Below the pieces are notes generated by a model. The model did no database searches. It worked only from the letters and a program-made list of their open reading frames with translations, and was not told the DNA's origin. Below, piece after piece: positions 3,236 to 42,200 of a DNA stretch of 44,836 bases. This DNA comes from an uncultured Candidatus Saccharibacteria bacterium (GTDB taxonomy: Bacteria; Patescibacteriota; Minisyncoccia; Phycocordibacterales; PALSA-1337): positions 1 to 44,836 of the forward strand of contig CAZQAQ010000004.1 in NCBI GenBank assembly GCA_964591325.1. Direction: 5' to 3'. Position numbers and translations under genes: made by a program. Positions within the stretch are counted from its first letter, which is position 1; each line of letters begins with the position of its first letter.

Positions 3236-3850
3236 ATGAAGTGGAAAAAGTTCCTAGAAATTGAAGTCAAACACCCCACTCTCCGACGTGATCTCGGTCT
3301 AAACGGTCAAGGTCAGGGTGAGGTAAAGGAGTTTGTCAGGACAAAAGTTGATTATATCGCTTTCCGTCCGTTTGAAAGTTTAGATTTGTTACAAAAGTCT
3401 TCTTCAAGTTCTGATGAACTTCGGGGTTTGTGTGATTCCATTAGTGGATCTAGAACTTATAATTATGTGGAATTTGCACTCGGTTTTCATATTCGGCTGG
3501 AGGAGGATTGGGGTACACGTGTACGTCATGTTGATGCTAGTGTTGGTAGTGGTAGTATCCAAGCGCACATTGATGATGTTATCTCATGTTTCAAAAACGA
3601 TAAGAATTTTGAAGGAAAACAACCATTTTGGGAGTGCATCACTAAACGAACTTTAAAGGGCAGTCTGCGCCATGGTTTGACAAGCATGATTTTGGAAATC
3701 TACCAGTTTCCAAGACATTACGGACTCTTTCCGATAAAGAGATCTGTTGAAACTTTCTCTGGTCCAAAACCAGACTATACCCATTCTTATTACTCGGATG
3801 AAAAACCGCCAGGTCCTATCATTCCAGGTACTCTGAAGTCGGCATGGTAA
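3236..3850 (+). CDS. hypothetical protein (204 aa, higher G+C)
   Basis: GAAGGAG RBS lies 5 nt upstream of the ATG. A strong terminator follows at 3856-3903. No motif recognised. Confidence 0.55.
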   Translation: MKWKKFLEIEVKHPTLRRDLGLNGQGQGEVKEFVRTKVDYIAFRPFESLDLLQKSSSSSDELRGLCDSISGSRTYNYVEFALGFHIRLEEDWGTRVRHVDASVGSGSIQAHIDDVISCFKNDKNFEGKQPFWECITKRTLKGSLRHGLTSMILEIYQFPRHYGLFPIKRSVETFSGPKPDYTHSYYSDEKPPGPIIPGTLKSAW

Positions 3851-4485: not shown

Positions 4486-5412
4486 ATGAAAACATTCATG
4501 CTGGCGTTGGTTGCAATCTTCACATACTTGGCCAGTGGCCAAGAACTCATTTACCCCAAGTCGGGAGATGTGGTGTATGTGGGAGAAACCATTACTATAA
4601 AATGGAAGAGTCAGAATAAGGTAAATGAGTCAGTATACATTAGTCTGAGTACGACGGACGGTTCTTATATCATGGTGGTATCGTATTACCATGATATAGG
4701 ATCACTAAAATGGAAAGTGGATACTAAAGGACTTAAGGGGACAGATTTTATCCTGAGTATGTATTATGGAGTGCCTCCATTTTTCAGTATTCCGATAAAG
4801 ATTCTGCCGGGCAAGCGACCTGCTACTACAGGTAAAATACTTGAACAGCCTGAAGTCTCGATCAAGAAAGCCGTTGAGGTAAAGTGGAATAGCATCAGCA
4901 ATGCATACTACAGAGTATTATTTCGGGACAATCTTACAAACAAACCGGTTGCCGTCTCATCACTTATTGTCGGCACTGGTGAAATAATGAGTTATCTAGC
5001 AAGTACGGATGGAGAAATCGGGATGTACTCAGTGGAAAGGATTCAAAATCCTGATTTCACCAATCAGACGCATGTAAATTTTGTTTCGACGAACTCAGAA
5101 TTCATTGATACATCGTTTACAAATTCAGTCTTCCTTGTTGGGAATATGAATGGTTCGAACTTCATGGGATCAAATATGAATGGTGTCACAGCATATTGGA
5201 CATCATTTAGTGACACTGCATTTACTTACAGTGACATGAGGGATTCAGCATTCTATTTTTCAGACTTTAAGAGGTCCAACCTTGTTTGGACCCAGAAAGA
5301 GAATTCATTGTTTGTGTACTGTGATTTCACCGGAGCAAATCTAGGTGATCTTACTGGAGCCAGATTCATTATGTGTATTATGCCAGATGGATCTGTAAGA
5401 GATTATCCGTAA
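4486..5412 (+). CDS. secreted protein with C-terminal pentapeptide repeats
   Basis: Signal peptide MKTFMLALVAIFTYLASGQ. The last ~110 aa show a 5-residue periodicity (FVSTN SEFID TSFTN SVFLV GNMNG SNFMG SNMNG...CDFTG ANLGD LTGAR). G+C is higher than the backbone. Confidence 0.7.
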   Translation: MKTFMLALVAIFTYLASGQELIYPKSGDVVYVGETITIKWKSQNKVNESVYISLSTTDGSYIMVVSYYHDIGSLKWKVDTKGLKGTDFILSMYYGVPPFFSIPIKILPGKRPATTGKILEQPEVSIKKAVEVKWNSISNAYYRVLFRDNLTNKPVAVSSLIVGTGEIMSYLASTDGEIGMYSVERIQNPDFTNQTHVNFVSTNSEFIDTSFTNSVFLVGNMNGSNFMGSNMNGVTAYWTSFSDTAFTYSDMRDSAFYFSDFKRSNLVWTQKENSLFVYCDFTGANLGDLTGARFIMCIMPDGSVRDYP

Positions 5413-9546: not shown

Positions 9547-9921
9547 ATGAATATAAATATAAAAACATCATCGATTTCGCTTACACCAAGTATTTCAGAT
9601 TATGTAGAGAAAAGGCTTCAGTCTATACAAAGATTTTTTGATGGAGACACTACTGCTATGTGTGATGTTGAATTGGCACGAACAACCGCACACCATAAGG
9701 CAGGGGATATATTTAGAGCAGAAATTCATATAGTAGCAAAAGATAAGAATCTATATGCAAGTAGCGAACAAGACGATCTATACAAAGCTATAGATGTAGT
9801 AAGAGATGAAATGTTAAGAGAAGTAAGAAGTTCAAAATCAAAAGGATTATCACTATTGAGACGTGGTGGAGCAAGAGTAAAGAACATGATAAGAGGTATT
9901 TGGTCAAAGAGAAATATATAA
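9547..9921 (+). CDS. hpf: ribosome hibernation promoting factor (HPF/RaiA family)
   Basis: MNINIKTSSISLTPSISDYVEKRL...AEIHI...LYASSEQDDLYKAIDVVRDEM is the S30AE signature. An alternative upstream ATG lies at 9532. Confidence 0.8.
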   Translation: MNINIKTSSISLTPSISDYVEKRLQSIQRFFDGDTTAMCDVELARTTAHHKAGDIFRAEIHIVAKDKNLYASSEQDDLYKAIDVVRDEMLREVRSSKSKGLSLLRRGGARVKNMIRGIWSKRNI

Positions 9922-9922
9922 A

Positions 9923-10066
9923 ATGTTATTGAAACAAAAAGTAAATTCTAGTTTGTGTATAATACTTATTTGTTTGATGGCATTTTGGACTGTGCTCTAT
10001 TACTTCTCTCACAAAGCTTTTGCAATAGGGGATTCTTATGCAGATTCTTATTCTGAGTTTATATAG
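9923..10066 (+). CDS. possible 47-aa signal-peptide mini-ORF
   Basis: Not in the ORF track (too short). MLLKQKVNSSLCIILICLMAFWTVLYYFSHKAFA|IGDSYADSYSEFI has a hydrophobic core and an AxA-like site. There is no clear RBS. Confidence 0.25.
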   Translation: MLLKQKVNSSLCIILICLMAFWTVLYYFSHKAFAIGDSYADSYSEFI

Positions 10067-13505: not shown

Positions 13506-13862
13506 ATGAATATTAAAAGGTTGTACGTACTGTCTGTCATACTCTGCGTTCTTGTCATTTTACCGATGGCGATTTGGGTCTATTGGCCCATCGTGAAGGG
13601 TAAACATGATTTCAATGAAGCAAAGGCAAAGCAAGAGATTGCAAGTATTCAGTCCAGTTCATCACCAGTTCCTGTATCGACTGGTATTCAGTCTGATACG
13701 AACAATGTGAGATTGGTTTACCACGCGGACGTTCTTCAGGATCAATCAAGGTTGGTGAATGAGTACACAAACTCAAACCCAGGTTTTGAATTTTTCGGTT
13801 TACTTAAGACCGATCGTGAACAGTCACTTCCTGGAGTAATACATGTTTATGTGAGGAAGTGA
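13506..13862 (+). CDS. membrane-anchored hypothetical protein (higher G+C)
   Basis: 118 aa. TGGAGG RBS. N-terminal TM helix LYVLSVILCVLVILPMAIWVYW. Terminator downstream. Confidence 0.5.
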   Translation: MNIKRLYVLSVILCVLVILPMAIWVYWPIVKGKHDFNEAKAKQEIASIQSSSSPVPVSTGIQSDTNNVRLVYHADVLQDQSRLVNEYTNSNPGFEFFGLLKTDREQSLPGVIHVYVRK

Positions 13863-27613: not shown

Positions 27614-27670
27614 AAGAAGTAGCAAATATGTTTTTTGCCCAAAATATATTTCACTTCAACCACTGGGCAT

Positions 27671-28114
27671 ATGCTTATCGGAGAATACCAACATTCATTT
27701 GATGATAAAAGTCGCATTTCACTTCCTGCGAAGTTCAGAAAGGAAATGGGAAAAAAAGTCATCATAGCACCAGGAATAGACAATTGTTTATTTGTCTTTA
27801 CGGTGAAAGGATGGAAAGAATTCACCGATCGTCTTTCAAACAGTACTTCTACATCTGTACTTCAGACTGACAACAGAAACTTCAACCGACTTATCATAGG
27901 TCGCGCAGCAGAAGTTGATGTTGATGGAGTAGGGAGGATGCTCGTTCCAGAGCATTTGCGATTGCATGCGGGGCTTACAGTAAAAAGCACCATTATCGGC
28001 ATCGTCAATCGCGTAGAAATATGGGATTCAGCTACATGGGAAACATATAGAAATGAATTTGGTAAAAAGACGGACAATATTGCCGAGAAATTGATTTCTG
28101 CGGGAATAATATAG
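27671..28114 (+). CDS. mraZ: transcriptional regulator MraZ
   Basis: MLIGEYQHSFDDKSRISLPAKFR and a second SpoVT/AbrB-like half (GRMLVPEHLR). The track start at 27635 is a non-ATG extension. Confidence 0.85.
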   Translation: MLIGEYQHSFDDKSRISLPAKFRKEMGKKVIIAPGIDNCLFVFTVKGWKEFTDRLSNSTSTSVLQTDNRNFNRLIIGRAAEVDVDGVGRMLVPEHLRLHAGLTVKSTIIGIVNRVEIWDSATWETYRNEFGKKTDNIAEKLISAGII

Positions 28115-32543: not shown

Positions 32544-32597
32544 GTAAATAAGTATCATTTTTCATTCATAAATACTTATATATTTTTATCAGTTATT

Positions 32598-32669
32598 GGC
32601 CCTATCGTCTATCGGCTAGGACGGAGCCTTCTCAAGGCTCAAAGCAGGGTTCGATTCCCTGTAGGGTCA
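32598..32669 (+). tRNA. tRNA-Glu (anticodon CUC)
   Basis: Full cloverleaf. Acceptor GGCCCTA/TAGGGTC. D-arm GTCT-ATCGGCTA-GGAC. Anticodon arm GAGCC-TTCTCAA-GGCTC. T-arm CAGGG-TTCGATT-CCCTG. Discriminator A. CCA is not encoded. Confidence 0.9.
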
Positions 32670-32670
32670 T

Positions 32671-32714
32671 GCAATAAAAACAAAGGGCATATAGATGCCT
32701 TTTGTTTTTGTTGC
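32671..32714 (+). terminator. 20-bp hairpin immediately 3' of tRNA-Glu
   Basis: GCAATAAAAACAAAGGGCAT-atag-ATGCCTTTTGTTTTTGTTGC. The two non-Watson-Crick positions are G-U on the plus strand. The U-rich tract lies inside the 3' arm. Confidence 0.55.
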
Positions 32715-32738
32715 ATATGATACTACTGGAGATGAGAA

Positions 32739-32804
32739 AGCCGGAGGTTGCGAAGGCAACCGAGGCGGGGTCGCTGGCGAGGCTAGCAAGCCGAGACCTG
32801 TGAC
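32739..32804 (+). other. GC-rich non-coding segment with two hairpins
   Basis: GCC[gga]GGTTGC-gaag-GCAACC[ga]GGC at 32739-32766 and GGTC[gct]GGC-11 nt-GCC[ga]GACC at 32769-32798. Composition contrasts sharply with the AT-rich flanks. Confidence 0.5.
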
Positions 32805-32825
32805 CGATTCCCTGTAGGGTCACCA
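32805..32825 (+). repeat. 18-nt direct copy of the tRNA-Glu 3' end, plus CCA
   Basis: CGATTCCCTGTAGGGTCA at 32805-32822 is identical to 32652-32669. It is followed by CCA, whereas the intact gene is followed by TGC. The 5' strand of the T-stem is absent, so this is a fragment. Confidence 0.85.
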
Positions 32826-32826
32826 T

Positions 32827-32856
32827 TTGACACAGTATATATAGTATGATTATATT
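32827..32856 (+). promoter_or_regulatory. sigma70-type promoter abutting the tRNA-end repeat
   Basis: TTGACA (32827-32832), 18-nt spacer, TATATT (32851-32856). Confidence 0.4.
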
Positions 32857-32917
32857 AAATGGGAATACTTTGAAATATTATAATAAATAGAACGAAACAA
32901 AGAAAGGAAAAGTAGTT

Positions 32918-33361
32918 ATGTCTGCACGAAACAGAGTCAACCAGCAGCGTTTTTGGGATCAGTGGCTTCAGTCCGGAGCGGTTGGTGGGATAGTAATCTA
33001 TGGAATGTCCACAGATGGTCCAACTCCGCCACCTTGCAATCGGAAGATTCTTAAAAAAGGCAGAGGTGTCTGTGTTCTTGATGGAAGCTCTAATGCTATC
33101 GAAACCTGGGTCCGGGCAGTGGCAATGAAGGCAGACGCTCAAGTTGACTGGCATTACAGCGGAGGGCGTGCGAATGTTCTCCATCTCGGCGATGACGAGA
33201 GTCGTCAACGGGTACTGAACGTCATCGAGGAGCTCAAGGACGAACTCAACGGATGCATCCTGAGTGTCGGTGGACCTGCACTCTACCGTGCAGGCGACGA
33301 GGTTCCCGCAGGAACAGTCGCTGTTGACCCAGACCTCGGACCTATTGTCGCCAATATGTGA
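32918..33361 (+). CDS. hypothetical protein (147 aa, markedly G+C-rich)
   Basis: AAAGGAAAAG RBS region. Clean ORF in the most GC-rich stretch of the window. Terminator at 33377-33415. No motif recognised. Confidence 0.6.
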   Translation: MSARNRVNQQRFWDQWLQSGAVGGIVIYGMSTDGPTPPPCNRKILKKGRGVCVLDGSSNAIETWVRAVAMKADAQVDWHYSGGRANVLHLGDDESRQRVLNVIEELKDELNGCILSVGGPALYRAGDEVPAGTVAVDPDLGPIVANM

Positions 33362-33376
33362 AAGTAAACCTCGTAC

Positions 33377-33415
33377 GAACCCCGCGAGAAAAACAAAGGG
33401 GTTCTTTTTATTTTC
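33377..33415 (+). terminator. rho-independent terminator
   Basis: GAACCCC-14 nt loop-GGGGTTC followed by TTTTTATTTT. Confidence 0.55.
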
Positions 33416-33584
33416 ATTACGATGTCTTGTCTATCTCTAGTTTTGTTACTATTGAGGTAAAAGTAACAAGGACTTCTTTTTATAAAACTAGGCTTTTACG
33501 TACTTATCCAAGTGACTTCCAAACATCACGATCACTTCATTCCAGCGAAGAACCTCACTTTCAAAAGTATGAGTTCTGAATTTT

Positions 33585-33627
33585 GAAAAAGAAAACCCAC
33601 CGAAGCAGGTTTTCCTGTTCAGTGGGC
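33585..33627 (-). terminator. rho-independent terminator (same family as 3856 and 5426)
   Basis: The minus strand reads GCCCACTGAACAGGAAAACCTGCTTCGGTGGGTTTTCTTTTTC. Confidence 0.75.
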
Positions 33628-33640
33628 AATGTTTTTGCAG

Positions 33641-34297
33641 TTAGGCCGCTACGGTGGATTTGACCTCAAACAATCGTGCATCACGATAGCTAAGTGGGCT
33701 TTCAAAATAGATATTGCCGATTTGGAGACCGACAAAGAGGTTGTCTGCTTCATGTCCAAATTTTAAGACGCCATGTCGCGCAACGAATTCCTCGGTGATT
33801 TTCTGTTCCAAGTCATCTCCAAAGTACCCAACACTTTCAGTTGAGACAAGACTACCTTTAGGTGACAGCAAGTCAACCAACTCTTCGAACTCAACAGACC
33901 ATACTGGCTTGCCGGACAACAAACATTCGTCATATCGAACCGATTCAATCAGGTTCGCTTCAATTTTTAATGCAAATTGGTTGCCTACCTCCTTTGCGAC
34001 GACATTGAACACAAACCGGCTAAGGTCAATGTTGATGTCCGCGTGCTTGTCGCCAAACTCATCCACGACTTTGTCGAGGAAAAATTGGGCATCATGGTTC
34101 TGCAGGCAGATTTGTGGACCACTTCCGTCAATCAATTGCCGGAACGCTTCCTGCAACTGCAATGGATTTCTTCGCAGTCTATCAACCTGCTCTTGAGACA
34201 AACCACGGATAACCGGTGACAGGGCTTTCGTGACTTCAGCTGCCAACGACAGGGCACTACCAACACTAACAGTTGTTTTCGAGGATGTTTTACTCAT
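33641..34297 (-). CDS. hypothetical protein (218 aa, higher G+C)
   Basis: AAAGGAGAGGAAA RBS region upstream on the minus strand. Own terminator. No motif recognised. Confidence 0.6.
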   Translation of the reverse strand: MSKTSSKTTVSVGSALSLAAEVTKALSPVIRGLSQEQVDRLRRNPLQLQEAFRQLIDGSGPQICLQNHDAQFFLDKVVDEFGDKHADINIDLSRFVFNVVAKEVGNQFALKIEANLIESVRYDECLLSGKPVWSVEFEELVDLLSPKGSLVSTESVGYFGDDLEQKITEEFVARHGVLKFGHEADNLFVGLQIGNIYFESPLSYRDARLFEVKSTVAA

Positions 34298-34564
34298 AAG
34301 AGTTGTTTCCTCTCCTTTCTTTTATTGTTGTTTAGGTACTAAATGGCGATTTTCTAATACATCATTAGATGTGTCAATTAACCATAAATATCATGTCATA
34401 GCTTAGCAAGTAAGTCAATATTATGTATTTTTTTAAATTATTTCTTTAAGTACTGCAAATAGCATTCAATCCGCTAGAGAAAGACAAATCCAGGCTCAAA
34501 AGGAAGAACAAATAAAAAATAATAATACTTATACAAACGTCTCAAAATCAAATAAATAACAGTC

Positions 34565-34595
34565 TTGCCAAGATAATTTTATTATGTGATATAAT
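34565..34595 (+). promoter_or_regulatory. extended -10 sigma70-type promoter
   Basis: TTGCCA, 19-nt spacer ending in TGa, then TATAAT. Confidence 0.45.
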
Positions 34596-34619: not shown

Positions 34620-34913
34620 ATGACCATCCTAGAGATTAGAAGACTAGCTAGAGTTTTTGGTGCTGATGTAGATTGTTCACCTGAATCTATATTAAGTCGT
34701 AAGTATGGATCAGCCATAGCAATAATTAGGCCAGATGATCTAAGTCGATATTGTTTGTTTGATAATAGATTATCACAAATAAAATTGGTACCTGATTGGA
34801 CAGATTGGGTAAAGGGAGATTGTGCAGATGCAATCGCAACTATAATATCTGATTCACCAAAAGATGTGGATGAATTAGCAAAAAAAGTAAGGGAGGCTCA
34901 GTATGCAGTATAA
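34620..34913 (+). CDS. hypothetical ~97-aa protein, paralogue of 35379..35690
   Basis: AAAGGAGG lies 8 nt before ATG 34620; the track's GTG 34611 start is unlikely. Motifs shared with 35379: E[IL]RR[LV]A..[FY]G, W.[DE]W[VM].GD.A..[IV]AT, [DE]L[AV]K.VR. Confidence 0.6.
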   Translation: MTILEIRRLARVFGADVDCSPESILSRKYGSAIAIIRPDDLSRYCLFDNRLSQIKLVPDWTDWVKGDCADAIATIISDSPKDVDELAKKVREAQYAV

Positions 34914-34968: not shown

Positions 34969-35271
34969 TTATACCTTAGGCTTATCTAACTTCTCTAAAT
35001 TTAATTTTTTTACTCCAAAATATACAACTGATGAAACTATAATAAAGTTAATAAGTATACTTAAGAATTTACCATAAGTGATATTTGCAGATGCTATATG
35101 TAATGAAAGGGTAGATAGATCACCAAATTTACCCAGTGCCAAGCCGATTATTGGGTTAATAAGATCATTTACTATTGAAGACACAACATCAGATACGGCT
35201 TTACCCAATATAAAACCAACTGCTAGACCTATAGCCCCTTGAGTCCTAATAAAATCAATAAAATTTTTCAT
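34969..35271 (-). CDS. mscL: large-conductance mechanosensitive channel MscL
   Basis: 100 aa. FIDFIRTQGAIGLAVGFILGKAVSDVVSSIVNDLINPIIG is the MscL TM1 signature. AT-rich, backbone-like composition. Confidence 0.9.
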   Translation of the reverse strand: MKNFIDFIRTQGAIGLAVGFILGKAVSDVVSSIVNDLINPIIGLALGKFGDLSTLSLHIASANITYGKFLSILINFIIVSSVVYFGVKKLNLEKLDKPKV

Positions 35272-35378
35272 AACTATATTATATACGTAAAAATAATGTC
35301 ATCAAATCTTGATTGACATATATACTTAAATATGATAAAAAATAAGTGTAGTGAACATTGTAATACGGAGGTCTATCA

Positions 35379-35690
35379 ATGAGAATTAGACGGAATTTAT
35401 CAAATGTAGAACTAAGGAGGGTGGCTGACCACTATGGCATCACGTTTTTGAATGGCTCAAATATCGTGGGGTCAGGCGGTTCACAAAAGGTTAAGGTATT
35501 CCATGGAGAAAATCCAAGGGATACAGTATCCTTTGATCAGGAAAATATGTTCTTCAAGTCCACCCATTGGAAGGAGTGGATGGATGGGGATATCGCTTAT
35601 GTTGTTGCAACCGCAATGACGGGTAAGGGATATCCACATCCTGATCTGGTAAAAGCAGTTCGACGCCAAGCAAAGAAACTTCTGAAGTAA
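35379..35690 (+). CDS. hypothetical 103-aa protein, paralogue of 34620..34913
   Basis: CGGAGG RBS. See the shared motifs listed for 34620. Terminator at 35703-35740. Confidence 0.6.
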   Translation: MRIRRNLSNVELRRVADHYGITFLNGSNIVGSGGSQKVKVFHGENPRDTVSFDQENMFFKSTHWKEWMDGDIAYVVATAMTGKGYPHPDLVKAVRRQAKKLLK

Positions 35691-35702
35691 AGCTTGGTTC
35701 AA

Positions 35703-35740
35703 ACCGCATGTGGAGGAAGCTCCCATGCGGTTTTACTTTT
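35703..35740 (+). terminator. rho-independent terminator
   Basis: ACCGCATG(t)GGAG-gaag-CTCCCATGCGGT followed by TTTTACTTTT. Confidence 0.75.
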
Positions 35741-35798
35741 ATCTTATAAATTGATTTATATTTTTTTAAACCTTACAAACATCCAGAATTTTATCCCT

Positions 35799-35826
35799 TT
35801 GACAAAAGTTGTATTAGTTGTAATAT
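35799..35826 (+). promoter_or_regulatory. sigma70-type promoter of the sigma-factor gene
   Basis: TTGACA, 16-nt spacer, TAATAT. AAAGGAGG RBS before ATG 35858. Confidence 0.5.
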
Positions 35827-35857
35827 ATTACAAGAAAGTTTTTCCAAAGGAGGATAA

Positions 35858-36718
35858 ATGAAAAATAACGATAAGGCCCACGAAAGAGATACGTTTCTCT
35901 GGTACCTCAGCAAGATAGGTCAGTATCCATTAATATCAAGGGAGCAAGAAATCGTTCTTGCAAAGCGTATAGCTAAAGGTGATAAAAGTGCGAAAGAAGA
36001 ATTGGCACTATCGAACCTTAGGCTTGTCGTAAAGATCGCTCTCGATTACTCTGGCCTTGGTATGGATGATATTGAATTGGTCAATGAAGGCAATATCGGC
36101 CTGATGAAAGCAGTTGAAAAATTTGATCCCAAGAAGGGCGCTAAATTCTCAACTTATGCCGCTTGGTGGATAAAGCAATCTATTAAGCGGGCATTGTCAG
36201 ACACAGTAAACACCATCAGAATTCCTATCCATGAAGGTGAGAAATTCCGTAGGGCCAGAAGAGCACTAGATAAATACCTTGCAGCTTCTGGTGGCTGTAA
36301 ACCAAATCAGAGAGAAATGGTTAGACTGTCTGGAATGAGTTATAAAAAGTTCAATGAACTTGAAGCTCTTCTCCAACCAGTTTCATTACATTCACCAAAA
36401 TCACCAGATGGTGAAGTTTCACTTGGTGATATGATTGAGGATCAAAACATTGTGGAACCTGATGAAGATCGTCAACATCAGGGTGATATCGAGGTTGTAA
36501 CTGAGCTATTGACCGAGCTCACACCTAGAGAAAGGGATGTAATTAAAAGAAGGTTTGGGTTTGGCTGTGAGGAGGAGACACTTGAGGATGTCGGTACTAC
36601 TCACGGTATTACAAGAGAGCGTGCTAGACAAATCCAACGTGACGCAATCTTTAAATTGAGGAGATTATTTCTTAAACGAAACAGGCAACATGATGTATTT
36701 GGTTTGCCAGTTTCATAA
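35858..36718 (+). CDS. compact sigma-70-family RNA polymerase sigma factor (regions 1.2-4.2, no region 1.1)
   Basis: 286 aa. YLSKIGQYPLISREQE (1.2), NLRLVVKIA...NEGNIGLMKAVEKFDPKKGAKFSTYAAWWIKQSI (2.1-2.4), RIPIH (3.0), LTPRERDVIKRRFG...TLEDVGTTHGITRERARQIQRDA (4.2). Confidence 0.85.
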   Translation: MKNNDKAHERDTFLWYLSKIGQYPLISREQEIVLAKRIAKGDKSAKEELALSNLRLVVKIALDYSGLGMDDIELVNEGNIGLMKAVEKFDPKKGAKFSTYAAWWIKQSIKRALSDTVNTIRIPIHEGEKFRRARRALDKYLAASGGCKPNQREMVRLSGMSYKKFNELEALLQPVSLHSPKSPDGEVSLGDMIEDQNIVEPDEDRQHQGDIEVVTELLTELTPRERDVIKRRFGFGCEEETLEDVGTTHGITRERARQIQRDAIFKLRRLFLKRNRQHDVFGLPVS

Positions 36719-36726
36719 AAAAACAC

Positions 36727-36756
36727 CACAGGATCACTCGATCCTGTGTTTTTTAT
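36727..36756 (+). terminator. rho-independent terminator
   Basis: CACAGGATC-actc-GATCCTGTG followed by TTTTTT. Confidence 0.75.
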
Positions 36757-36902
36757 TTTAGAAATATGTTTTTAAACAAAATTTATACTATTTAAAACTT
36801 ATATTTTTCGTATATTTTTTTTGGACTAAATAGAAGTTTTTTAAGTCAATATTATAAGCCATATTTTAGAGGTCTTATCCACAAAAAAGTTGAATAAACC
36901 AC

Positions 36903-36931
36903 TTGCTTTTATTTGTCAAGTGTGGTATATT
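36903..36931 (+). promoter_or_regulatory. extended -10 sigma70-type promoter
   Basis: TTGCTT, 17-nt spacer ending in TGg, then TATATT. Confidence 0.5.
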
Positions 36932-37027
36932 AGTACCAGAAGTTTCTAGCTCATTGAAGTATGAGAAATGGAAACCAAACCAAAAATTTGTCGCAATTTT
37001 TGCGATAACAACGCAAAGGAAAAATAT

Positions 37028-38017
37028 ATGAAGACTAACAAGTCTCTCATTGCAATCCTGACTTCGGTCATGTTTGCAATTTTCACCCTTGCGTTTGTCG
37101 CAAGGGCTCAGTCTCCAGCACCCGCTGGAAACTCCAACACTGCTTCGGTGGTTGTCCCGTCTGTTTTGCCTGATTCGCTTCCTATCGGAAGTGAGCAGGT
37201 AATGCTCGATTGGGCGGTGACTAACAGGCAGTGGAGTGTGTATCCCCTCATGACATCATGGGATGTCTCGATTCGATACACAGGCAAGGATAATAATATA
37301 CATGAAGTCGGTGTTTCTGTGATTAATTATCCAATCAGTACGTACCAAGGCTTTGAGGATAAGGTTGTAGAAGTAGGCAATCTTCTTCTAAATACCATAA
37401 GAAAAAATAGAGACATAGATCCCACCAAGGGTCTTAGCTTTAAACTTTTTTATGGTTATGACAACGACCTTGATAATACTGGTGTTACTAGTTTTTACAT
37501 CCAGAAGGATCTTGGCCTTATTGGTACTATAACGGACAACACCTTCAGGAATATGGAGGTTACATGGTACCAGTCTATTGTCAGGTTTAAATCACTTGAG
37601 AGAGTCGAAATTAATATCGATTCTGACCCTGCGTATAACTACGTATGGCCAAGTGGTGGTGTAAAAACCCAGTCGGTATACCCGATTGAGTTTACTACAT
37701 CTGAGTACCACGTGTTTCGTACCTGGTATTCAACCAATGCTTTCAAAGCACGTTTTAAAATTACTGCCTCTGGGGAAACGGCAACGTATACTCAAATAGG
37801 AAGTAAGCTCAAAGCACCTTCGGTAAAGGTCTTGAGTGACAGAGCGGTTGAGGTTTCCATGACGCCAGGTTCGCATACGGTTGTAGAAACCAGTGTGGAC
37901 ATGGTTAATTGGAGTGTTATGAAAGACATTCCATGGAATTTGAGTACGGAAAGCCAGATAGTTTTGGTCTATCCGCCAAATTCACCTCATCGCTTCTTTC
38001 GAGCCTGGTCGGAGTAG
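37028..38017 (+). CDS. secreted hypothetical protein (~329 aa)
   Basis: AAAGGA RBS and ATG 37028 give the signal peptide MKTNKSLIAILTSVMFAIFTLAFVARA|QSP. The track ORF starts 20 codons upstream at 36968. The C-terminal VETSVDMVNWSV...HRFFRAW resembles the ..S.DL..W....FYR beta-sandwich tail common in secreted proteins of other phyla. Confidence 0.65.
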   Translation: MKTNKSLIAILTSVMFAIFTLAFVARAQSPAPAGNSNTASVVVPSVLPDSLPIGSEQVMLDWAVTNRQWSVYPLMTSWDVSIRYTGKDNNIHEVGVSVINYPISTYQGFEDKVVEVGNLLLNTIRKNRDIDPTKGLSFKLFYGYDNDLDNTGVTSFYIQKDLGLIGTITDNTFRNMEVTWYQSIVRFKSLERVEINIDSDPAYNYVWPSGGVKTQSVYPIEFTTSEYHVFRTWYSTNAFKARFKITASGETATYTQIGSKLKAPSVKVLSDRAVEVSMTPGSHTVVETSVDMVNWSVMKDIPWNLSTESQIVLVYPPNSPHRFFRAWSE

Positions 38018-38033
38018 TATCCTCCGATTAGCA

Positions 38034-38068
38034 TTCAAAAAAGGCCTTACGCAAGTAGGGCCTTTTCT
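38034..38068. terminator. bidirectional terminator between convergent genes
   Basis: AAAAAA-AGGCCTTAC-gcaa-GTAGGGCCT-TTTT. Confidence 0.7.
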
Positions 38069-38092
38069 GTATCTATTTTTCTTTTGTTTTCT

Positions 38093-41000
38093 TTATATTT
38101 CTTCTATTAACGAGTCTGTAACTAGTAGTTTAACAGCGTTACTATAGATTTTTGACTTAGTATTGTCAGATGAAGTACATGTAATTTTGAATGTATACAA
38201 GATCGGTTCTGCACTAGCTGTACTTATATTTTGAACTACATTATTATTTGTCGAATCAGTACTAAATGGGAACAGCTCATTAATAGTTGAGTTGTCAGGC
38301 TTATAAACTCTATTTGCACAACTATAATCACTTGATAATGAACTTATATACTTTATTCTCGCAGGATTTCCTTTTTTAACTTTATAAGGCACTACTTTGG
38401 AGTCATCTTTTTCTACTGTTGATGATAGGGTCTTATTTGCTATCGAAGAATTACCTAGGAAAAGTACTACTGAAAGAGGGTTTGTTGTTGGGGGAGGAGG
38501 AGGGCAACTTGATGAACAGTTTGGTGGTACGTTTGGATTGACATTATTTACTCCAGGATTAGGATCAACACAGTTTCCATTTCCATCTGACACTAGTCCT
38601 GATGGTATACCAGATTGTGTACCTGCTATGTTTTGACATACATCTACGATTGTAAGTGATCTTAGACCTAGTTGAACTGAGTTACTGTCTAATGAAGGTA
38701 GACCAGTAGTGCTGTTACAATGTATTACGAAGCTATATGAACCTAGTATTACTGAACTCTGTGAAGTTGTTAGAGTGTTTGAAATACCATTTAGACTATT
38801 TCCCCAAGTCCATATACTGTTACCATTTGATCCATCTGGTTTTATTACGGCATTTGTACATGTGTATCCACCTACTATACCTGTAGATGACCAGTTCAAC
38901 ATAAATGTATCTCCTTTAGATATATCGACCGCAGTGCTATAGCTAGAGTCTGTAGATCTTTTGATTCCAAGTGTTAGTTGGGGAGCAGGGCAGTTTGTAG
39001 TTGTAAGTTTTGGTGATGTTACTGTAACAGCGGGTGAAGCAGACTGAAGTTTTCCACCAACAGTTGCTGCTACTGTATATGTATATTTTGTATCTGCACT
39101 AAATGTAGGATATTTTTCTGTATTTTCACTACCTTTAACAGTATATTTTATTGTTTCTGAAGGATTTGATCTTGTTCTAGTTACGGTATATGAATCCGCA
39201 CCTATATTATTCCAACTTTGAGTCATGGTTAATTCAGAAGCAAAGCATTTATCACCGGAACTTGTAACTTGTAGACCGTAGTTTATAGCATCAACTGGTG
39301 GTGGAGGTGCTACTTCAAAACATCCAGATTGACCATTTGCACAAGGAACTAGATTTGCTGTGGCTGTTAGTGGATCTTGAATCGTTACCGATACAATATT
39401 ACTCAATACTGTATTTGTTCCATTTGTACATGACACTTTTAGCTGATACATACCTGTATCGATATCGTATGTCCATAAACCAGTAGCAATAGATCCTATA
39501 GTATTACCGTAAGACCATATTGTATTGTCGGTTGCTGCACTAGGAGTAACAGTCACCTGTCTACATGTATAGTCTGGTGTTAGGTTGCTTACCCACTTTA
39601 GATCAAACTGAGCACCGAGAGGTATAGATATTGTAGAATTTGTAGCGTTTGGAACGGTTGCAACATCATACAGAGCTAAATTTGTGATTTTATCAGCTGT
39701 CTTTTTTGTAAATAATTTTACAATTGGTGTAACAGTTGGTTGAGGACATTGTGAACCTGTTAAGTACTTTGGAGAATAAACATTAACATCATTTGAACCT
39801 ACTTGCTCAGCACCAGATATAATAGCGGCTACTTTGTAGGTGTATAGAGTGTTATAAACCATTGTAACATCTGTATATGAAGTACCAGACACTGATCTAA
39901 CTACAACTGGTTCTGATGTACCAGATCTTGTTCTGTATAGTTTGTATGAACTTGCCCCAGATATTGCATTCCAAGTAAGTTTTATATTTAGGTCACTTGA
40001 TTTACAGCTATCAGCAGATGGAGTCGCAACTAAGTTGTATACAAGAGGAGACTGCACTGTAACATTAAATGTTGTTGTTCTTGTTATAACAGAAGTGTTA
40101 TTTGTAGAAACAGTAGGGGCAGAATTACATGTAAAATAAGTTGAAGCACTCTGCTCATTTCCAGACATGGTGTAGTTATTTACACCACATTCTCTTAATG
40201 CAAGAGATCTTCTAAAATCTACAACTTTCTGAGCACCAGATGAGTTTGCAAGGTATAAATTTTGACCTACAACCTTACATGAACCATCATCAAAGTTTAT
40301 ACACTTTGTAGAATTTAAACCTCCGTTTACATCATAATCTGTTTGGGGGTTGAATCCTGATTCTGTACTACAACCAAAATAGAATCCATCGTACTGATTG
40401 TTTCCATTTGACTGAGGATCAGTTACAAAGACAATACTACATGGGTACTTTAGTTGTGTTCCATTTGCTACCGATGACTTTTTATATGTTCCTGAAACCG
40501 TGACTGTATAAAGACCTTTTGGAGTTGTTGAGTATGAGTATAGTGTTAGGTTTGTATTTGAGGATGGATTTGGTGTAACAATTTTTCCACCAGAGAATGA
40601 ACCACCACCAACTGCAATTCCATTTGCTGCATCTTTTACACTTGCACCAGATGAATTTGTAATAGAATCAACATTAAGCGTTACATCTCCACTTGTAAGG
40701 GGGGATAGAGATGTGGTTGTAATTACACTAGATATATTGTTACCAGCAGTTATGATCTTATTACCATCATTTGAAAGTTTAAAATCAAAACTTAATAGTG
40801 TGATTGGTTCAATGTATACTTTTCCATCTCCACCTTTAGTTACACTTGCAGAATCAGCAACACCAGCTCCACCTCCTGGAGCTTTTCCATTTATACCGTC
40901 ATTACCGCCAACTCCACCCATAGCACCAGCTCCACCCGGTACATTTTTTGTAATTTGAGAAGGGAAAGGATTTGGAGTAGATGGTGAAGAACCTTGTATT

Positions 41001-41734
41001 GATGTAATTCCAGAGTAAGTTCCAAAACCACTTCCTCCACCAGGTATTCTTATACAAGTTGAACCAAAGTTTCCATTTCCATCACCACACCAACTTGTTA
41101 CTTTTCCTGCTAAACCAGCACCATTACCACCAACAGTATCTGAAGCACCTTTTCCATGAAGGCTACCAACATTAAATTCACTTGAGACTGGATAGGCTAC
41201 AGCAAATTTGCCAGGAGTTGTAAAACCAGAAGCACCTCCTCCAGCACCTACGTATTTATTATTTGATCTACTTTTTAGTATTGAGGCACCAGCAGATTTA
41301 TCAGTAAAAGTAGGATTTGAGTTGTATGTAGAGTAAAGGACATAAGGGGACATACTTGCTACCGGAGTTGTTTGCCCACCAGCACCTACAGTAACATCAA
41401 AAATTTCTCCTTGGGTAACAGGAATTATTGCTTCAGAATAACCTCCTCCGGCACCACCAACAGCTGCCCAATTATTACAATTTGAAAATATAAAACCTGT
41501 ACATGTTATATCTGAATTTCCTCCACCTCCACCCGCACCCCATATTTTAACCTTCAACATTGAGACTCCAGATGGAACAGTATAAGTATATGATCCAGGT
41601 GTACTAAATGTTGTAGGAGTAGCCTGTGCAAAAGACGTCTTCGGGTTTATTGAAACTATAGATGCTAAAATAAACAATAGTAAGGCAATAAATTTCCCAG
41701 AATTTAGTGTGTTTTTTAAAATATTTCTTTTCAT
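38093..41734 (-). CDS. 1213-aa secreted surface protein: N-terminal glycine-rich domain plus repeated Fn3/Ig-like modules
   Basis: Signal peptide ...SINPKTSFA|QATP. Residues ~40-310 carry motifs resembling the Gly_rich (PF12810-type) pattern: KIWGAGGGGG, VGGAGGGYSE, VTVGAGGQ, GAGGGASG, PGGGSGFG, GGAGAMGGVGGNDG, PGGGAG. Two copies follow of a bipartite module (W N.[IG].A.SY.[LV].RTRS then a Cys-framed Ig-like domain), then a PPPPP linker and a final Ig-like domain. Confidence 0.8.
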   Translation of the reverse strand: MKRNILKNTLNSGKFIALLLFILASIVSINPKTSFAQATPTTFSTPGSYTYTVPSGVSMLKVKIWGAGGGGGNSDITCTGFIFSNCNNWAAVGGAGGGYSEAIIPVTQGEIFDVTVGAGGQTTPVASMSPYVLYSTYNSNPTFTDKSAGASILKSRSNNKYVGAGGGASGFTTPGKFAVAYPVSSEFNVGSLHGKGASDTVGGNGAGLAGKVTSWCGDGNGNFGSTCIRIPGGGSGFGTYSGITSIQGSSPSTPNPFPSQITKNVPGGAGAMGGVGGNDGINGKAPGGGAGVADSASVTKGGDGKVYIEPITLLSFDFKLSNDGNKIITAGNNISSVITTTSLSPLTSGDVTLNVDSITNSSGASVKDAANGIAVGGGSFSGGKIVTPNPSSNTNLTLYSYSTTPKGLYTVTVSGTYKKSSVANGTQLKYPCSIVFVTDPQSNGNNQYDGFYFGCSTESGFNPQTDYDVNGGLNSTKCINFDDGSCKVVGQNLYLANSSGAQKVVDFRRSLALRECGVNNYTMSGNEQSASTYFTCNSAPTVSTNNTSVITRTTTFNVTVQSPLVYNLVATPSADSCKSSDLNIKLTWNAISGASSYKLYRTRSGTSEPVVVRSVSGTSYTDVTMVYNTLYTYKVAAIISGAEQVGSNDVNVYSPKYLTGSQCPQPTVTPIVKLFTKKTADKITNLALYDVATVPNATNSTISIPLGAQFDLKWVSNLTPDYTCRQVTVTPSAATDNTIWSYGNTIGSIATGLWTYDIDTGMYQLKVSCTNGTNTVLSNIVSVTIQDPLTATANLVPCANGQSGCFEVAPPPPVDAINYGLQVTSSGDKCFASELTMTQSWNNIGADSYTVTRTRSNPSETIKYTVKGSENTEKYPTFSADTKYTYTVAATVGGKLQSASPAVTVTSPKLTTTNCPAPQLTLGIKRSTDSSYSTAVDISKGDTFMLNWSSTGIVGGYTCTNAVIKPDGSNGNSIWTWGNSLNGISNTLTTSQSSVILGSYSFVIHCNSTTGLPSLDSNSVQLGLRSLTIVDVCQNIAGTQSGIPSGLVSDGNGNCVDPNPGVNNVNPNVPPNCSSSCPPPPPTTNPLSVVLFLGNSSIANKTLSSTVEKDDSKVVPYKVKKGNPARIKYISSLSSDYSCANRVYKPDNSTINELFPFSTDSTNNNVVQNISTASAEPILYTFKITCTSSDNTKSKIYSNAVKLLVTDSLIEEI

Positions 41735-41738
41735 GTCT

Positions 41739-42098
41739 TTATTGTTGTCTATTAAGAGCTTCTAATATCGTTGCTTTCTCTTCTGTTGTTAAATTCATGG
41801 AATTTGCATCACCAAACTGGCTTAGTATGAGGTTTTTTTCATATGGTGTTAGAGGTTCACTCTCGATCTTTGCTATTCTAGCGAATAGCGCTACCTTTTT
41901 TGATGAAACATCGTATGTGTCTGGTAGAGTAAGGCTTCCTTTTGGATCAATCTCAATTCTTTTTTCCGGTATTAGATTGCCAGCTTTTTCACCTATAAAT
42001 TGCCATAGAAATGATAGTCCAATGACAATCAGTAATACAAATATTAACCACAACATTTTTTTGTGGCTATTATCTTTGGGTCTTTTAAAAAATTCCAT
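41739..42098 (-). CDS. small N-terminally anchored membrane protein, co-oriented 4 nt upstream of the giant gene
   Basis: 119 aa. TM helix MLWLIFVLLIVIGLSFLW. Probably co-transcribed. An extended -10 (TGaTATAAT) lies upstream on the minus strand at ~42140-42150. Confidence 0.6.
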   Translation of the reverse strand: MEFFKRPKDNSHKKMLWLIFVLLIVIGLSFLWQFIGEKAGNLIPEKRIEIDPKGSLTLPDTYDVSSKKVALFARIAKIESEPLTPYEKNLILSQFGDANSMNLTTEEKATILEALNRQQ

Positions 42099-42200
42099 GT
42101 TTATTTTATTTTAGAACTATTAATACATGTGTAATTATATCACGTAATACACTATAAAATTTTGCTTGCTGTGGAAATCTAAATATGATATTTTATATCC

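Follow-up and report, generated by a model that had tools for sequence, protein, structure and literature searches.

A principal-like, candidate alternative sigma factor in one Paceibacteria genus lies beside a variable pair of surface-protein genes

Gene content and conservation of the locus

The window, the 44.8-kb stretch of DNA analysed here, comes from a Paceibacteria (CPR) bacterium, as judged by comparing its ValRS to those of relatives, where homologues fall off smoothly (92, 73, 65 and 60% identity). The original prediction had proposed an episymbiont-type lineage with a reduced genome, and membership of the CPR (Patescibacteria) supports this. The features discussed below are these:

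32597..32670, plus strand: tRNA-Glu(CTC), found by ARAGORN, 53.6 bits in Rfam; left edge of the variable region
32806..32822, plus strand: exact repeat of the tRNA-Glu 3' end (second copy), GATTCCCTGTAGGGTCA
32830..34569, no strand: variable island of foreign composition, outside the sigma module, holding o147 (32918-33361, plus) and o218 (33641-34297, minus)
34620..34913, plus strand: p97, 97 aa, acidic (pI 5.0), native codon composition; extended -10 promoter at 34585-34595
34969..35271, minus strand: mscL, a native housekeeping gene between p97 and p103; Pfam MscL, E=1.6e-21
35313..35742, plus strand: p103 transcription unit; promoter TTGACA-N17-TGaTAAAAA at 35313-35341, CDS 35379-35690, intrinsic terminator 35704-35742
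35799..36759, plus strand: sigma transcription unit; promoter TTGACA-N16/18-TAATAT/TATATT at 35799-35829, intrinsic terminator 36727-36759
35858-36718, plus strand: sigma CDS, 286 aa; Pfam Sigma70_r1_2, r2, r3 and r4
36857..37027, plus strand: s329 upstream control region; boxes AGCCATATT, TTATCCACA and CTTGCTTT, extended -10 TGgTATATT (36902-36931)
37028..38017, plus strand: s329, a secreted protein of 329 aa, conserved at the N-terminus (residues about 1-60) and the C-terminus (about 241-329)
38093..41734, minus strand: 1213-aa exported protein of native composition; signal peptide, N-terminal glycine-rich domain, then Fn3/Ig-like repeats
41739-42098 (CDS; unit to 42143), minus strand: a119, 119 aa, one N-terminal transmembrane segment; extended -10 TGaTATAAT at 42134-42143

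All five genes described in the original prediction are real, lie at the coordinates it gave and are under purifying selection, with dN/dS of 0.01-0.32 across the genes of the locus. The locus is well documented, with a sigma factor of an ordinary type and orphan neighbours, and presents no new mechanism. Three congeneric species keep the block p97–MscL–p103–sigma–s329–(1213 aa, 119 aa)–DoxX–ValRS in the same order, and the neighbourhood thus recurs in relatives, a point that had been left to be checked. The locus had also been taken to be lineage-specific, and this holds: sigma homologues above 50% identity occur only within the genus, and the block from p97 to DoxX is absent near ValRS in the family-level relatives examined. 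The order MurF-tRNA-Glu(CTC)-...-ValRS, found also in the relative L027, is ancestral. An MscL gene lies near ValRS in another relative, L018; within the genus, mscL is 94-99% conserved, with dN/dS of 0.03-0.06.

By eye, the sigma gene had seemed compositionally unlike the AT-rich core. Its GC3 is indeed 0.34 against 0.14-0.22 (about 0.18) in core genes, and p103 (0.42) and s329 (0.44) are atypical too, while the 1213-aa gene (0.17), a119 (0.25) and p97 (0.17) look native. Across all three species sigma GC3 is 0.30-0.36. As s329 homologues and one p103 homologue in other lineages likewise show elevated GC3, we regard it as a gene-specific trait and not as clean evidence of recent transfer.

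A variable island to the left of the module

The original prediction called the region accessory DNA. This label fits the variable island that lies left of the module, at 32.7-34.57 kb, and not the module itself, which is stable within the genus. The island has the marks of a tRNA-targeted genomic island: the tRNA 3' end is directly repeated, the composition is foreign (GC 0.46-0.54, GC3 0.48-0.49 against about 0.18 in core genes), and relatives show variable cargo with a recombinase. Exact copies of GATTCCCTGTAGGGTCA occur twice, at 32653 and 32806, where 0.06 are expected by chance, and the second looks like an attachment-site remnant. The sister species L011 matches the 131 bp around it at 97.7% identity and has a serine recombinase gene after it. 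The cargo differs in sister species; from 34570-34572 onwards the window is again homologous to L011 and L014. Since just 153 bp separate the two repeats and the cargo is not bounded by a third copy, the element can be delimited only approximately. Neither o147 nor o218 has a match in Pfam, NCBIfam, PHROG or PADLOC, and the conserved element next to the tRNA and the leaders of the locus match no known RNA families in Rfam.

Could p103, sigma and s329 themselves be the remnant of a phage or other mobile element? The trio shares atypical GC3 and lies near a tRNA-Glu integration hotspot that bears a recombinase in a sister species. Sigma also matches a PHROG sigma family, and the 1213-aa protein has a tail-fibre-like N-terminus. 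We nevertheless consider this origin highly improbable, since the trio lies past the end of the variable island at 34570 and is stable and vertically inherited in the genus, with dS like that of its neighbours, and since no integrase, capsid or terminase genes accompany it. A phage origin of sigma or p103 was rejected: viral relatives of sigma are only 32-40% identical, below the cellular ones, and no viral relatives of p103 were found.

A conserved pair of surface-protein genes

The prediction of a secreted protein of about 329 aa holds up in both its start at 37028 and its Sec-type signal peptide, read from the sequence. The true start is not the upstream ATG at 36968, because indels between 36968 and 37028 among three species are not multiples of three and a conserved ribosome-binding site, AAAGGAAAAA, precedes 37028. 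The central part of s329 (about codons 61-240) is hypervariable. A diversity-generating retroelement was considered as the cause and rejected; the variable stretch spans some 500 bp, and inspection by eye showed neither a reverse transcriptase gene nor a template repeat nearby. The AlphaFold2 model (AF2) of s329 has a pLDDT of 58, is confident only at residues 76-175 and 262-329, and returns only generic multi-Ig/Fn3 matches in Foldseek, with TM below 0.2. A metagenome scan with the s329 alignment returned a single hit, the sister-species contig already known.

The two-gene unit convergent with s329, predicted as a 119-aa anchor and a 1213-aa exported protein, is confirmed by the transmembrane segment of the former and, in the latter, by the signal peptide and by residues 578-656, which match an Fn3-like PDB chain. 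A Gly_rich_2 match in the 1213-aa protein is weak (E=8e-4) and falls short of the Pfam cut-off. The two genes are separated by 4 bp and are apparently co-transcribed. Within the genus, a119 is 95-99% identical (dN/dS 0.01-0.04) and the intergenic region is 96% conserved. Neither s329 nor a119 matches Pfam, NCBIfam, PHROG or PADLOC.

Genes like s329 and the 1213-aa gene are convergent neighbours again in two other CPR lineages, L129 and L128 (a fragment of the latter gene in L128), which bears out the exported proteins as a real, conserved pair. Judged from sequence, the secreted protein and the giant protein are the conserved core unit of the locus. Upstream of the pair in L128 and L129, at the position taken by sigma here, lies a histidine kinase, and a regulator gene thus stands upstream of the pair in each lineage seen.

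The control region of s329 is conserved as well. Its intergenic identity in the genus is 91%, above that of synonymous sites. The leader of about 100 nt contains the box CTAGCTCATTGA and a hairpin at 36991-37005, whose pairing is kept, as read from the alignment, through a CGCA/TGCG to CACA/TGTG change in L011. L128 and L129, with the histidine kinase gene upstream, also keep the core s329 promoter motifs. The spacing from the CTTGCTTT box to the -10 is 17 bp in the sigma-bearing genus versus 21-22 bp, that is, 5 bp shorter.

Promoters and the small paralogues

The genes p103, sigma and s329 form separate transcription units with ordinary promoters, and those of p103 and sigma each end in a terminator. 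Every gene of the module has the same ordinary TGnTATAAT-type promoter, as do the neighbouring housekeeping genes mscL and doxX; no dedicated promoter class is therefore visible, which argues against the dedicated sigma-controlled envelope regulon that had been proposed. A private promoter motif common to s329 and a119 was likewise not seen.

p103 has 103 aa and a pI of 10, with dN/dS of 0.24-0.26, and its promoter and terminator are conserved in three species. It had been described as having a single recognisable relative, the second copy nearby. The paralogy with p97 is confirmed (22% pairwise identity, E=3e-6; 17 invariant columns across the p97 and p103 orthologues), and an HMM scan of the window found no third copy. 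The description was too narrow: a profile search of 1.84 billion representatives yielded two further members, and only two, P0126 and P0127, from a neighbouring Paceibacteria lineage. Another profile match, P0128 (3320 aa), is a eukaryotic receptor phosphatase with Fn3 repeats and was discarded as spurious. Neither p97 nor p103 matches Pfam, NCBIfam, PHROG or PADLOC, and the family (p97, p103, P0126, P0127 and o120 of L027) has no Pfam match even at E up to 10. The AF2 model of p103 has a pLDDT of 59, with no Foldseek match against the PDB at E below 1. Its N-terminal ELRRxAxxYGIxF may resemble SAP/HeH/Rho_N-type motifs, a likeness that no profile supports.

The original prediction saw in this arrangement the layout of a sigma/anti-sigma system. 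Such pairs are usually co-transcribed. Here, p103 and sigma each have a promoter and a terminator of their own, a strong one for p103, and share no transcript, and p97 lies beyond the oppositely oriented mscL. The genes for P0126 and P0127 lie next to an SGNH hydrolase gene on recovered contigs that contain no sigma gene, and an orthologous sigma was not found outside the genus. The resemblance to ECF sigma/anti-sigma modules is that a sigma gene sits beside small proteins and exported proteins. Unlike ECF (group-4) sigmas, which have regions 2 and 4 only, the window's sigma has regions 1.2 and 3. The locus also differs from these modules in that a terminator and a promoter stand between p103 and sigma, where an ECF pair has an adjacent, co-transcribed anti-sigma gene, and in that p97 and p103 lack an anti-sigma domain, a zinc motif and a transmembrane segment. 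As read from its sequence, p103 has zero cysteines and no hydrophobic segment.

It is nonetheless conceivable that p103, and perhaps p97, would bind sigma as a partner of a new type, similar to an anti-sigma or to Crl, and form with it a dedicated switch for the surface pair in host attachment. In each of the three species p103 directly precedes sigma, both genes having the same orientation, and p103, sigma and s329 have atypical GC3 in common. The tail of region 4.2, a classic partner-contact surface of sigmas, is the fastest-evolving part of the protein, and the surface pair is always preceded by a regulator gene. The terminator and promoter that separate p103 from sigma speak against it, as do the p103-like genes without an adjacent sigma, the lack of anti-sigma features and of a confident fold in the small proteins, the lack of a private motif shared by s329 and a119, and s329 promoter motifs that are unchanged where a histidine kinase takes the place of sigma. 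We think a partner role quite unlikely. p97 and p103 are a tiny orphan family resident in this genomic interval, and any link of theirs to sigma would be hypothetical.

A group-2-like sigma factor confined to one genus

Sigma had been described as a compact factor that keeps regions 1.2-4.2, and all four Pfam regions were detected above cut-off (r1_2 4e-12, r2 5e-17, r3 2e-6, r4 2e-14), placing it in the sigma-70 family, groups 1-3. Three species share its start codon and ribosome-binding site. Among NCBIfam models it matches RpoD and RpoS best, with every score below cut-off: 214 against 354 for the equivalog TIGR02393 (RpoD_Cterm), 243 against 555 and 240 against 572 for full-length RpoD models, and, for proteobacterial RpoS, 238.8 against 378.7 (TIGR02394) and 228 against 394 (NF004207). 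Region 1.1 is absent, as region 1.2 starts at residue 11-15 of 286. Aligned to B. subtilis SigA, the protein retains YxxWW (melting), the Q of region 2.4, the H..E of region 3.0 and the RERxRQ of region 4.2, and hence the residues that recognise the -35, -10 and extended -10 elements. In region 2.4 it has K at a position where T is the consensus of group-1 sigmas.

Collectively, these features resemble group-2 (RpoS/principal-like) sigma-70 factors, which share regions 1.2, 2, 3 and 4, a length of about 290 aa, the lack of region 1.1, consensus-type reading residues and RpoD/RpoS as best profiles. The window's sigma differs from them in falling below the curated RpoD and RpoS cut-offs, in carrying the WWIKQSIKRAL variant of region 2.4, and in its occurrence in a CPR genome and one genus only. 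Its domain also matches the C-terminal part of MzaA models of the MZA anti-phage system, but scores 221 against a cut-off of 800, and those models span about 680-730 positions versus 286 aa. The seven other proteins of the locus that were tested have no PADLOC match, Mza included, and membership of this defence system was rejected.

A search of 5.8 billion proteins returned sigma homologues of 88, 86 and 79% identity and then none above 50%, even though ValRS has relatives 60-73% identical. Sigma dN/dS is 0.13-0.16 against 0.05 for ValRS, about three times faster, with similar dS, which fits vertical co-divergence. A group-1 factor would be expected to show core-like conservation and to be shared with related lineages; sigma shows neither. 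The top matches checked carry the region-2.4 signature WWIKQ(S/G/M)(I/V)(K/R/L)R, and the named ones are labelled Verrucomicrobia. All six neighbourhoods examined of the nearest outside relatives are non-CPR (GGDEF/PAS, HisG, TrpE, TctABC, Mrp or FGE-sulfatase genes). A close grouping is a WWIKQSIKRAL subfamily of roughly 280-350 aa, from Verrucomicrobia-type (PVC) and other non-CPR bacteria (e.g. P0015, P0023, P0042), with an identical region 2.3/2.4 sequence, the same length class and 46-50% overall identity. The window's sigma is a divergent offshoot of it (RpoD_Cterm 214 versus 272-286), with a variable region 4.2 tail and an unrelated genomic context. Sigma was thus probably acquired horizontally from a non-CPR donor, as far as can be inferred from a comparison that includes no Paceibacteria principal sigma and in which CPR sigmas could sit unnoticed in the 44-50% band of matches. 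Literature searches for CPR sigma inventories gave nothing usable.

Sigma might instead be the genome's single housekeeping factor, compact and fast-evolving, as many CPR proteins are, with unrelated neighbours there by chance. All four of its regions resemble RpoD, and the residues for reading -35, -10 and extended -10 elements are kept; the gene also has its own canonical promoter and evolves under purifying selection. Every promoter of the locus, those of mscL and doxX included, is of a type that such a sigma could read, and no other sigma occurs in the window or in about 10 kb of sister-species flanks. However, relatives at the family level (ValRS 70-73%) have no sigma above 50% identity in the 5.8-billion-protein search, dN/dS is three times that of ValRS, and codon composition is atypical in all three species. 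The missing region 1.1, the K in place of the group-1 T and the nearest relatives in non-CPR genomes also weigh against it. We regard a housekeeping role as unlikely, though it deserves real weight.

Discussion

We lean, on balance, towards an alternative, principal-like sigma factor, horizontally acquired and present in one Paceibacteria genus, beside a variable surface pair to which it may be linked as a regulator. This reading builds on observed gene identities, transcription-unit structure, synteny, evolutionary rates and composition. In it, sigma would be a group-2/RpoS-type factor confined to the genus, whose ancestor most likely gained it from a non-CPR donor; vertical inheritance under relaxed but real purifying selection would have followed. 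Because it retains the -35, -10 and extended -10 reading residues, its holoenzyme should share TGnTATAAT-type promoters with that of the general sigma, and would redistribute transcription instead of serving a private regulon. Sigma would occupy the place of the membrane histidine kinase of other CPR lineages, directly upstream of the convergent pair, and, as a working model, may modulate expression of s329 and of the giant Gly-rich/Fn3 protein with its membrane partner. p97 and p103, the small orphan family of the interval, would stand apart from this model.

Several points temper this reading. The survey covered 44.8 kb of the genome plus flanks, so sigma may yet be its only housekeeping factor, of unusual divergence; both the residues kept for reading consensus elements and the uniform promoter type at mscL and doxX fit a principal role equally well. 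Elevated GC3 occurs in s329 and p103 homologues elsewhere, and the adjacency of sigma to the surface genes may be coincidence. A bolder version, which we hold to be very unlikely, would have the acquired sigma replace a histidine-kinase regulator of an antigenically variable secreted protein and a giant adhesin, with p103 as a new sigma-binding modulator and the shorter CTTGCTTT spacing marking the rewiring of host attachment from activator to sigma dependence.

CPR bacteria have minimal regulatory repertoires, and to our knowledge almost nothing is known about control of the surface proteins thought to mediate their attachment to hosts. If the reading of an acquired alternative sigma is true, a reduced genome would here have gained a regulator by gene transfer, in the concrete form of an extra, genus-specific sigma that apparently descends from outside the CPR. 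Its neighbours are a giant surface protein and a secreted protein whose core is hypervariable.

Gene content and host

The original prediction placed this DNA in a CPR (Patescibacteria) bacterium and described an orphan sigma factor among small paralogous and exported proteins. The host assignment is borne out, as the closest genomic relatives of its ValRS (right end of the window) are Paceibacteria/Parcubacteria MAGs, labeled Nomura-, Taylor-, Staskawiczbacteria or 'Paceibacterota', with identity dropping smoothly from 92% to ~72% and ~63%. The window is ~32% GC, and its core genes include mraZ-rsmH-ftsL-PBP-murF, mreB, RRF, rseP, proS and aspS. All the described genes were found where they had been placed.

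Features of the locus
32597-32670, tRNA-Glu(CTC), left of the variable DNA
32918-33361, +, o147, orphan ORF in a 1.7-kb insert
33641-34297, -, o218, orphan ORF in the same insert
34620-34913, +, p97, paralogue of p103
34969-35271, -, mscL, native gene
35379-35690, +, p103, small basic protein
35858-36718, +, sigma factor, 286 aa
37028-38017, +, s329, secreted protein
38093-41734, -, 1213-aa exported protein
41739-42098, -, a119, membrane protein
Right of a119, doxX and valS, native genes

Species comparison places a conserved ribosome-binding site directly before the s329 start at 37028. A 349-aa version starting at 36968 is wrong, as frame-breaking indels separate the species between 36968 and 37028.

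A genus-specific block beside a variable tRNA-Glu site

Nineteen contigs from several metagenomes carry the identical sigma factor, and all share one gene order. Sigma homologues that are 88, 86 and 79% identical mark sister species, and the two such species that have long contigs (L011/L015 and L014) keep the entire block from p97 to valS. The neighborhood recurs within the genus, but not near valS in ~40 family-level relatives (ValRS 58-73%), where we found no module gene except mscL at two loci. A more distant relative, L027, carries MurF-tRNA-Glu(CTC)-2.7 kb-ValRS; this interval represents the ancestral frame, in which the ~10 kb of the window's genus was later built.

Variable DNA lies left of the module. 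The last 17 nt of tRNA-Glu(CTC) have an exact second copy at 32806, 153 bp downstream and followed by CCA. The 131 bp surrounding this repeat (window 32597-32829; L011 1-131) are 97.7% identical to the sister species, far higher than coding DNA, and resemble what an attachment site leaves behind, or else a small conserved element, at a hotspot of integration. Several metagenome contigs end in this region. The 1.7-kb insert that follows (32830-34569) is 46-54% GC, against 32% for the genome, and its two orphan ORFs, o147 and o218, have no family match. At the same site, L011 carries a serine recombinase and NadE, and L014 carries 46% GC ORFs and a nucleotidyltransferase. Homology with the sister species restarts at 34570, just 5' of the p97 promoter.

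In one metagenome, contig L007 (1-2409, compared with the window from 32596 onward) has 99.3% identical downstream DNA and a different left flank (LysE, tRNA-Val, tRNA-Ser). The junction falls exactly at the tRNA, here Glu(TTC) rather than Glu(CTC), which means that either two tRNA-Glu genes recombined or the assembly is chimeric. Strains also differ to the right of the window, 3' of valS and an acyltransferase (L002/L004 12687-13952 versus L001/L005 19588-20861): some contigs carry a HisKA_7TM protein and a FeeM/autoinducer-synthase-like gene, others an unrelated 298-aa gene.

A divergent, principal-like sigma factor

The sigma factor contains Pfam regions 1.2, 2, 3 and 4 and is best matched by RpoD and RpoS models, with every score below the curated cut-off. 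Aligned with B. subtilis SigA, it lacks region 1.1, keeps the melting residues (YAAWW, of the YxxWW type that melts promoters in sigma-70 factors) and the Q of region 2.4, where it has K in place of the T of SigA, and contains the H..E of region 3.0 and RERxRQ of region 4.2. In sigma-70 factors, H..E reads the extended -10 element. It is a new, divergent representative of an already known kind of sigma.

A database search returned no homologue above 50% identity outside the genus, and no orthologue there was found in the databases searched. The best outside matches checked carry the region-2.4 signature WWIKQ(S/G/M)(I/V)(K/R/L)R, most commonly as WWIKQSIKRAL; the few named ones are Verrucomicrobia. 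All six neighborhoods inspected are clearly non-CPR, marked by GGDEF/PAS, HisG, TrpE, TctABC, Mrp antiporter or FGE-sulfatase genes. Identity to viral relatives is lower, at 32-40%.

Within-genus dN/dS
a119: 0.01-0.04
mscL: 0.03-0.06
ValRS: 0.05
doxX: 0.07-0.09
1213-aa gene: 0.08-0.11
sigma: 0.13-0.16
p97, p103: 0.22-0.32
s329: 0.22-0.32

Synonymous divergence is alike for all these genes; therefore, the sigma gene co-diverged with the genome, under weaker constraint. Within it, the tail of region 4.2 varies most.

The sigma gene is also atypical in composition, with a GC3 of 0.30-0.36 in all three species. High GC3 persists across these species in p103, sigma and s329; it reaches 0.44-0.51 in distant s329 homologues (neighbors 0.17-0.25) and 0.40 in P0127, a p103-like protein (neighbors 0.16-0.18). 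Overall, the three families (window 35379-38017; L011, L014, L128, L129, L099) span 0.30-0.51 and flanking genes 0.16-0.25. High GC3 is therefore a persistent family property that does not simply point to recent transfer. As its cause, simple selection for codons ending in C was rejected because G-ending codons are raised too. Elsewhere in the window, GC3 is raised (0.34-0.42) in an AIR-synthase-like gene, o204, a pentapeptide-repeat protein, o118 and mraZ (1360-2463, 3236-3850, 4486-5412, 13506-13862, 27635-28114).

With its RpoD-like regions, this factor may be the genome's only sigma. Jointly, the missing family-level orthologue, relaxed constraint, atypical GC3 and non-CPR affinity lead us to favor a lineage-specific, principal-like alternative sigma, probably foreign in origin.

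Small proteins and promoters

The original prediction cast the small proteins as partners in a sigma/anti-sigma system. p97 and p103 are true paralogues, though distant (22% identity, E=3e-6); 17 columns stay invariant over the orthologues of both. When 1.84 billion representative proteins were searched by profile, only both orthologue groups matched, plus P0126 and P0127 from a neighboring Paceibacteria lineage whose MurF is 74% identical. In that lineage, too, the gene sits just 3' of murF/tRNA-Glu, but adjoins an SGNH-type hydrolase, with no sigma gene in the contigs recovered. The pI is ~10 for p103, P0126 and P0127, all strongly basic, and 5.0 for p97, which is acidic. In L027, a 120-aa ORF directly 5' of valS (9579-9941) carries LSLEQLRRLSDKVGITFSNG, a marginal resemblance to the p103 N-terminus LSNVELRRVADHYGITFLNG (profile E-value 0.05).

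p103 and sigma form no operon: in three species, p103 keeps the promoter TTGACA-N17-TGaTAAAAA and a strong terminator, and sigma its own TTGACA promoter and terminator. p97, with its own extended -10 promoter, lies beyond the oppositely transcribed mscL. Because the family has no domain, defense-system or fold match, p103 and sigma are separate units and P0126/P0127 have no sigma gene beside them in the recovered contigs, nothing positively supports an anti-sigma role, and several of these points oppose an obligate partnership. p97 and p103 are orphan small proteins.

Every unit of the locus, mscL and doxX included, has the same type of promoter, TGnTATAAT, in some cases preceded by a TTGACA-like -35. 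No private promoter class ties sigma to the target candidates s329 or a119, which, by the criterion set in the original prediction, argues against a dedicated regulon; a principal-like sigma would not need such a class. Only ~7 nt separate the doxX -10 element from the ATG, and the doxX mRNA may therefore be leaderless.

Conservation centers on the exported proteins

Relatives of s329 occur in other CPR contigs at 34-40% identity. In L129, the s329 homologue and a 1213-aa protein homologue are transcribed convergently; in L128, its convergent partner is a C-terminal fragment of a 1213-like protein. In both, the upstream gene is a membrane histidine kinase instead of sigma. The control region (window 36857-37027; L128 2828-2985; L129 470-640) shares AGCCATATT, TTAnCC, CTTGCTTT, TGTGGTAT and GCnCATTGA across these lineages, so it accompanies the gene. 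In the sigma-bearing genus, 17 bp separate the CTTGCTTT box from the -10 element, versus 21-22 bp in the kinase-bearing lineages, a difference that may be meaningful. A leader hairpin just 5' of the ribosome-binding site keeps its pairing via compensatory changes.

s329 is a mosaic of near-invariant termini (codons 1-60 and 241-329: pN 0.08 or less, pS mostly 0.0-0.5, up to 0.65) and ~180 hypervariable central codons with saturated synonymous sites (61-240: pN 0.3-0.58, pS ~0.9 against L011, the more distant sister species). This pattern suggests an exposed surface protein, diversifying or allele-exchanging. In the first 30 codons, conservation extends even to synonymous sites. Besides a signal peptide, the 1213-aa protein has Fn3-like repeats and an N-terminus with a weak Gly_rich_2 match and tail-fiber-like character. 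The single-pass a119 is under very strong constraint, tighter than ValRS (0.01-0.04 vs 0.05). It lacks the Shine-Dalgarno sequence present in its neighbors (41739-42200), and between a119 and doxX the species share 96% identity in the intergenic DNA.

The conserved unit of the locus is thus the exported proteins. With its sigma/anti-sigma part unsupported, the proposed regulated surface module holds in weak form only, as a regulator gene upstream of a conserved surface-protein pair.
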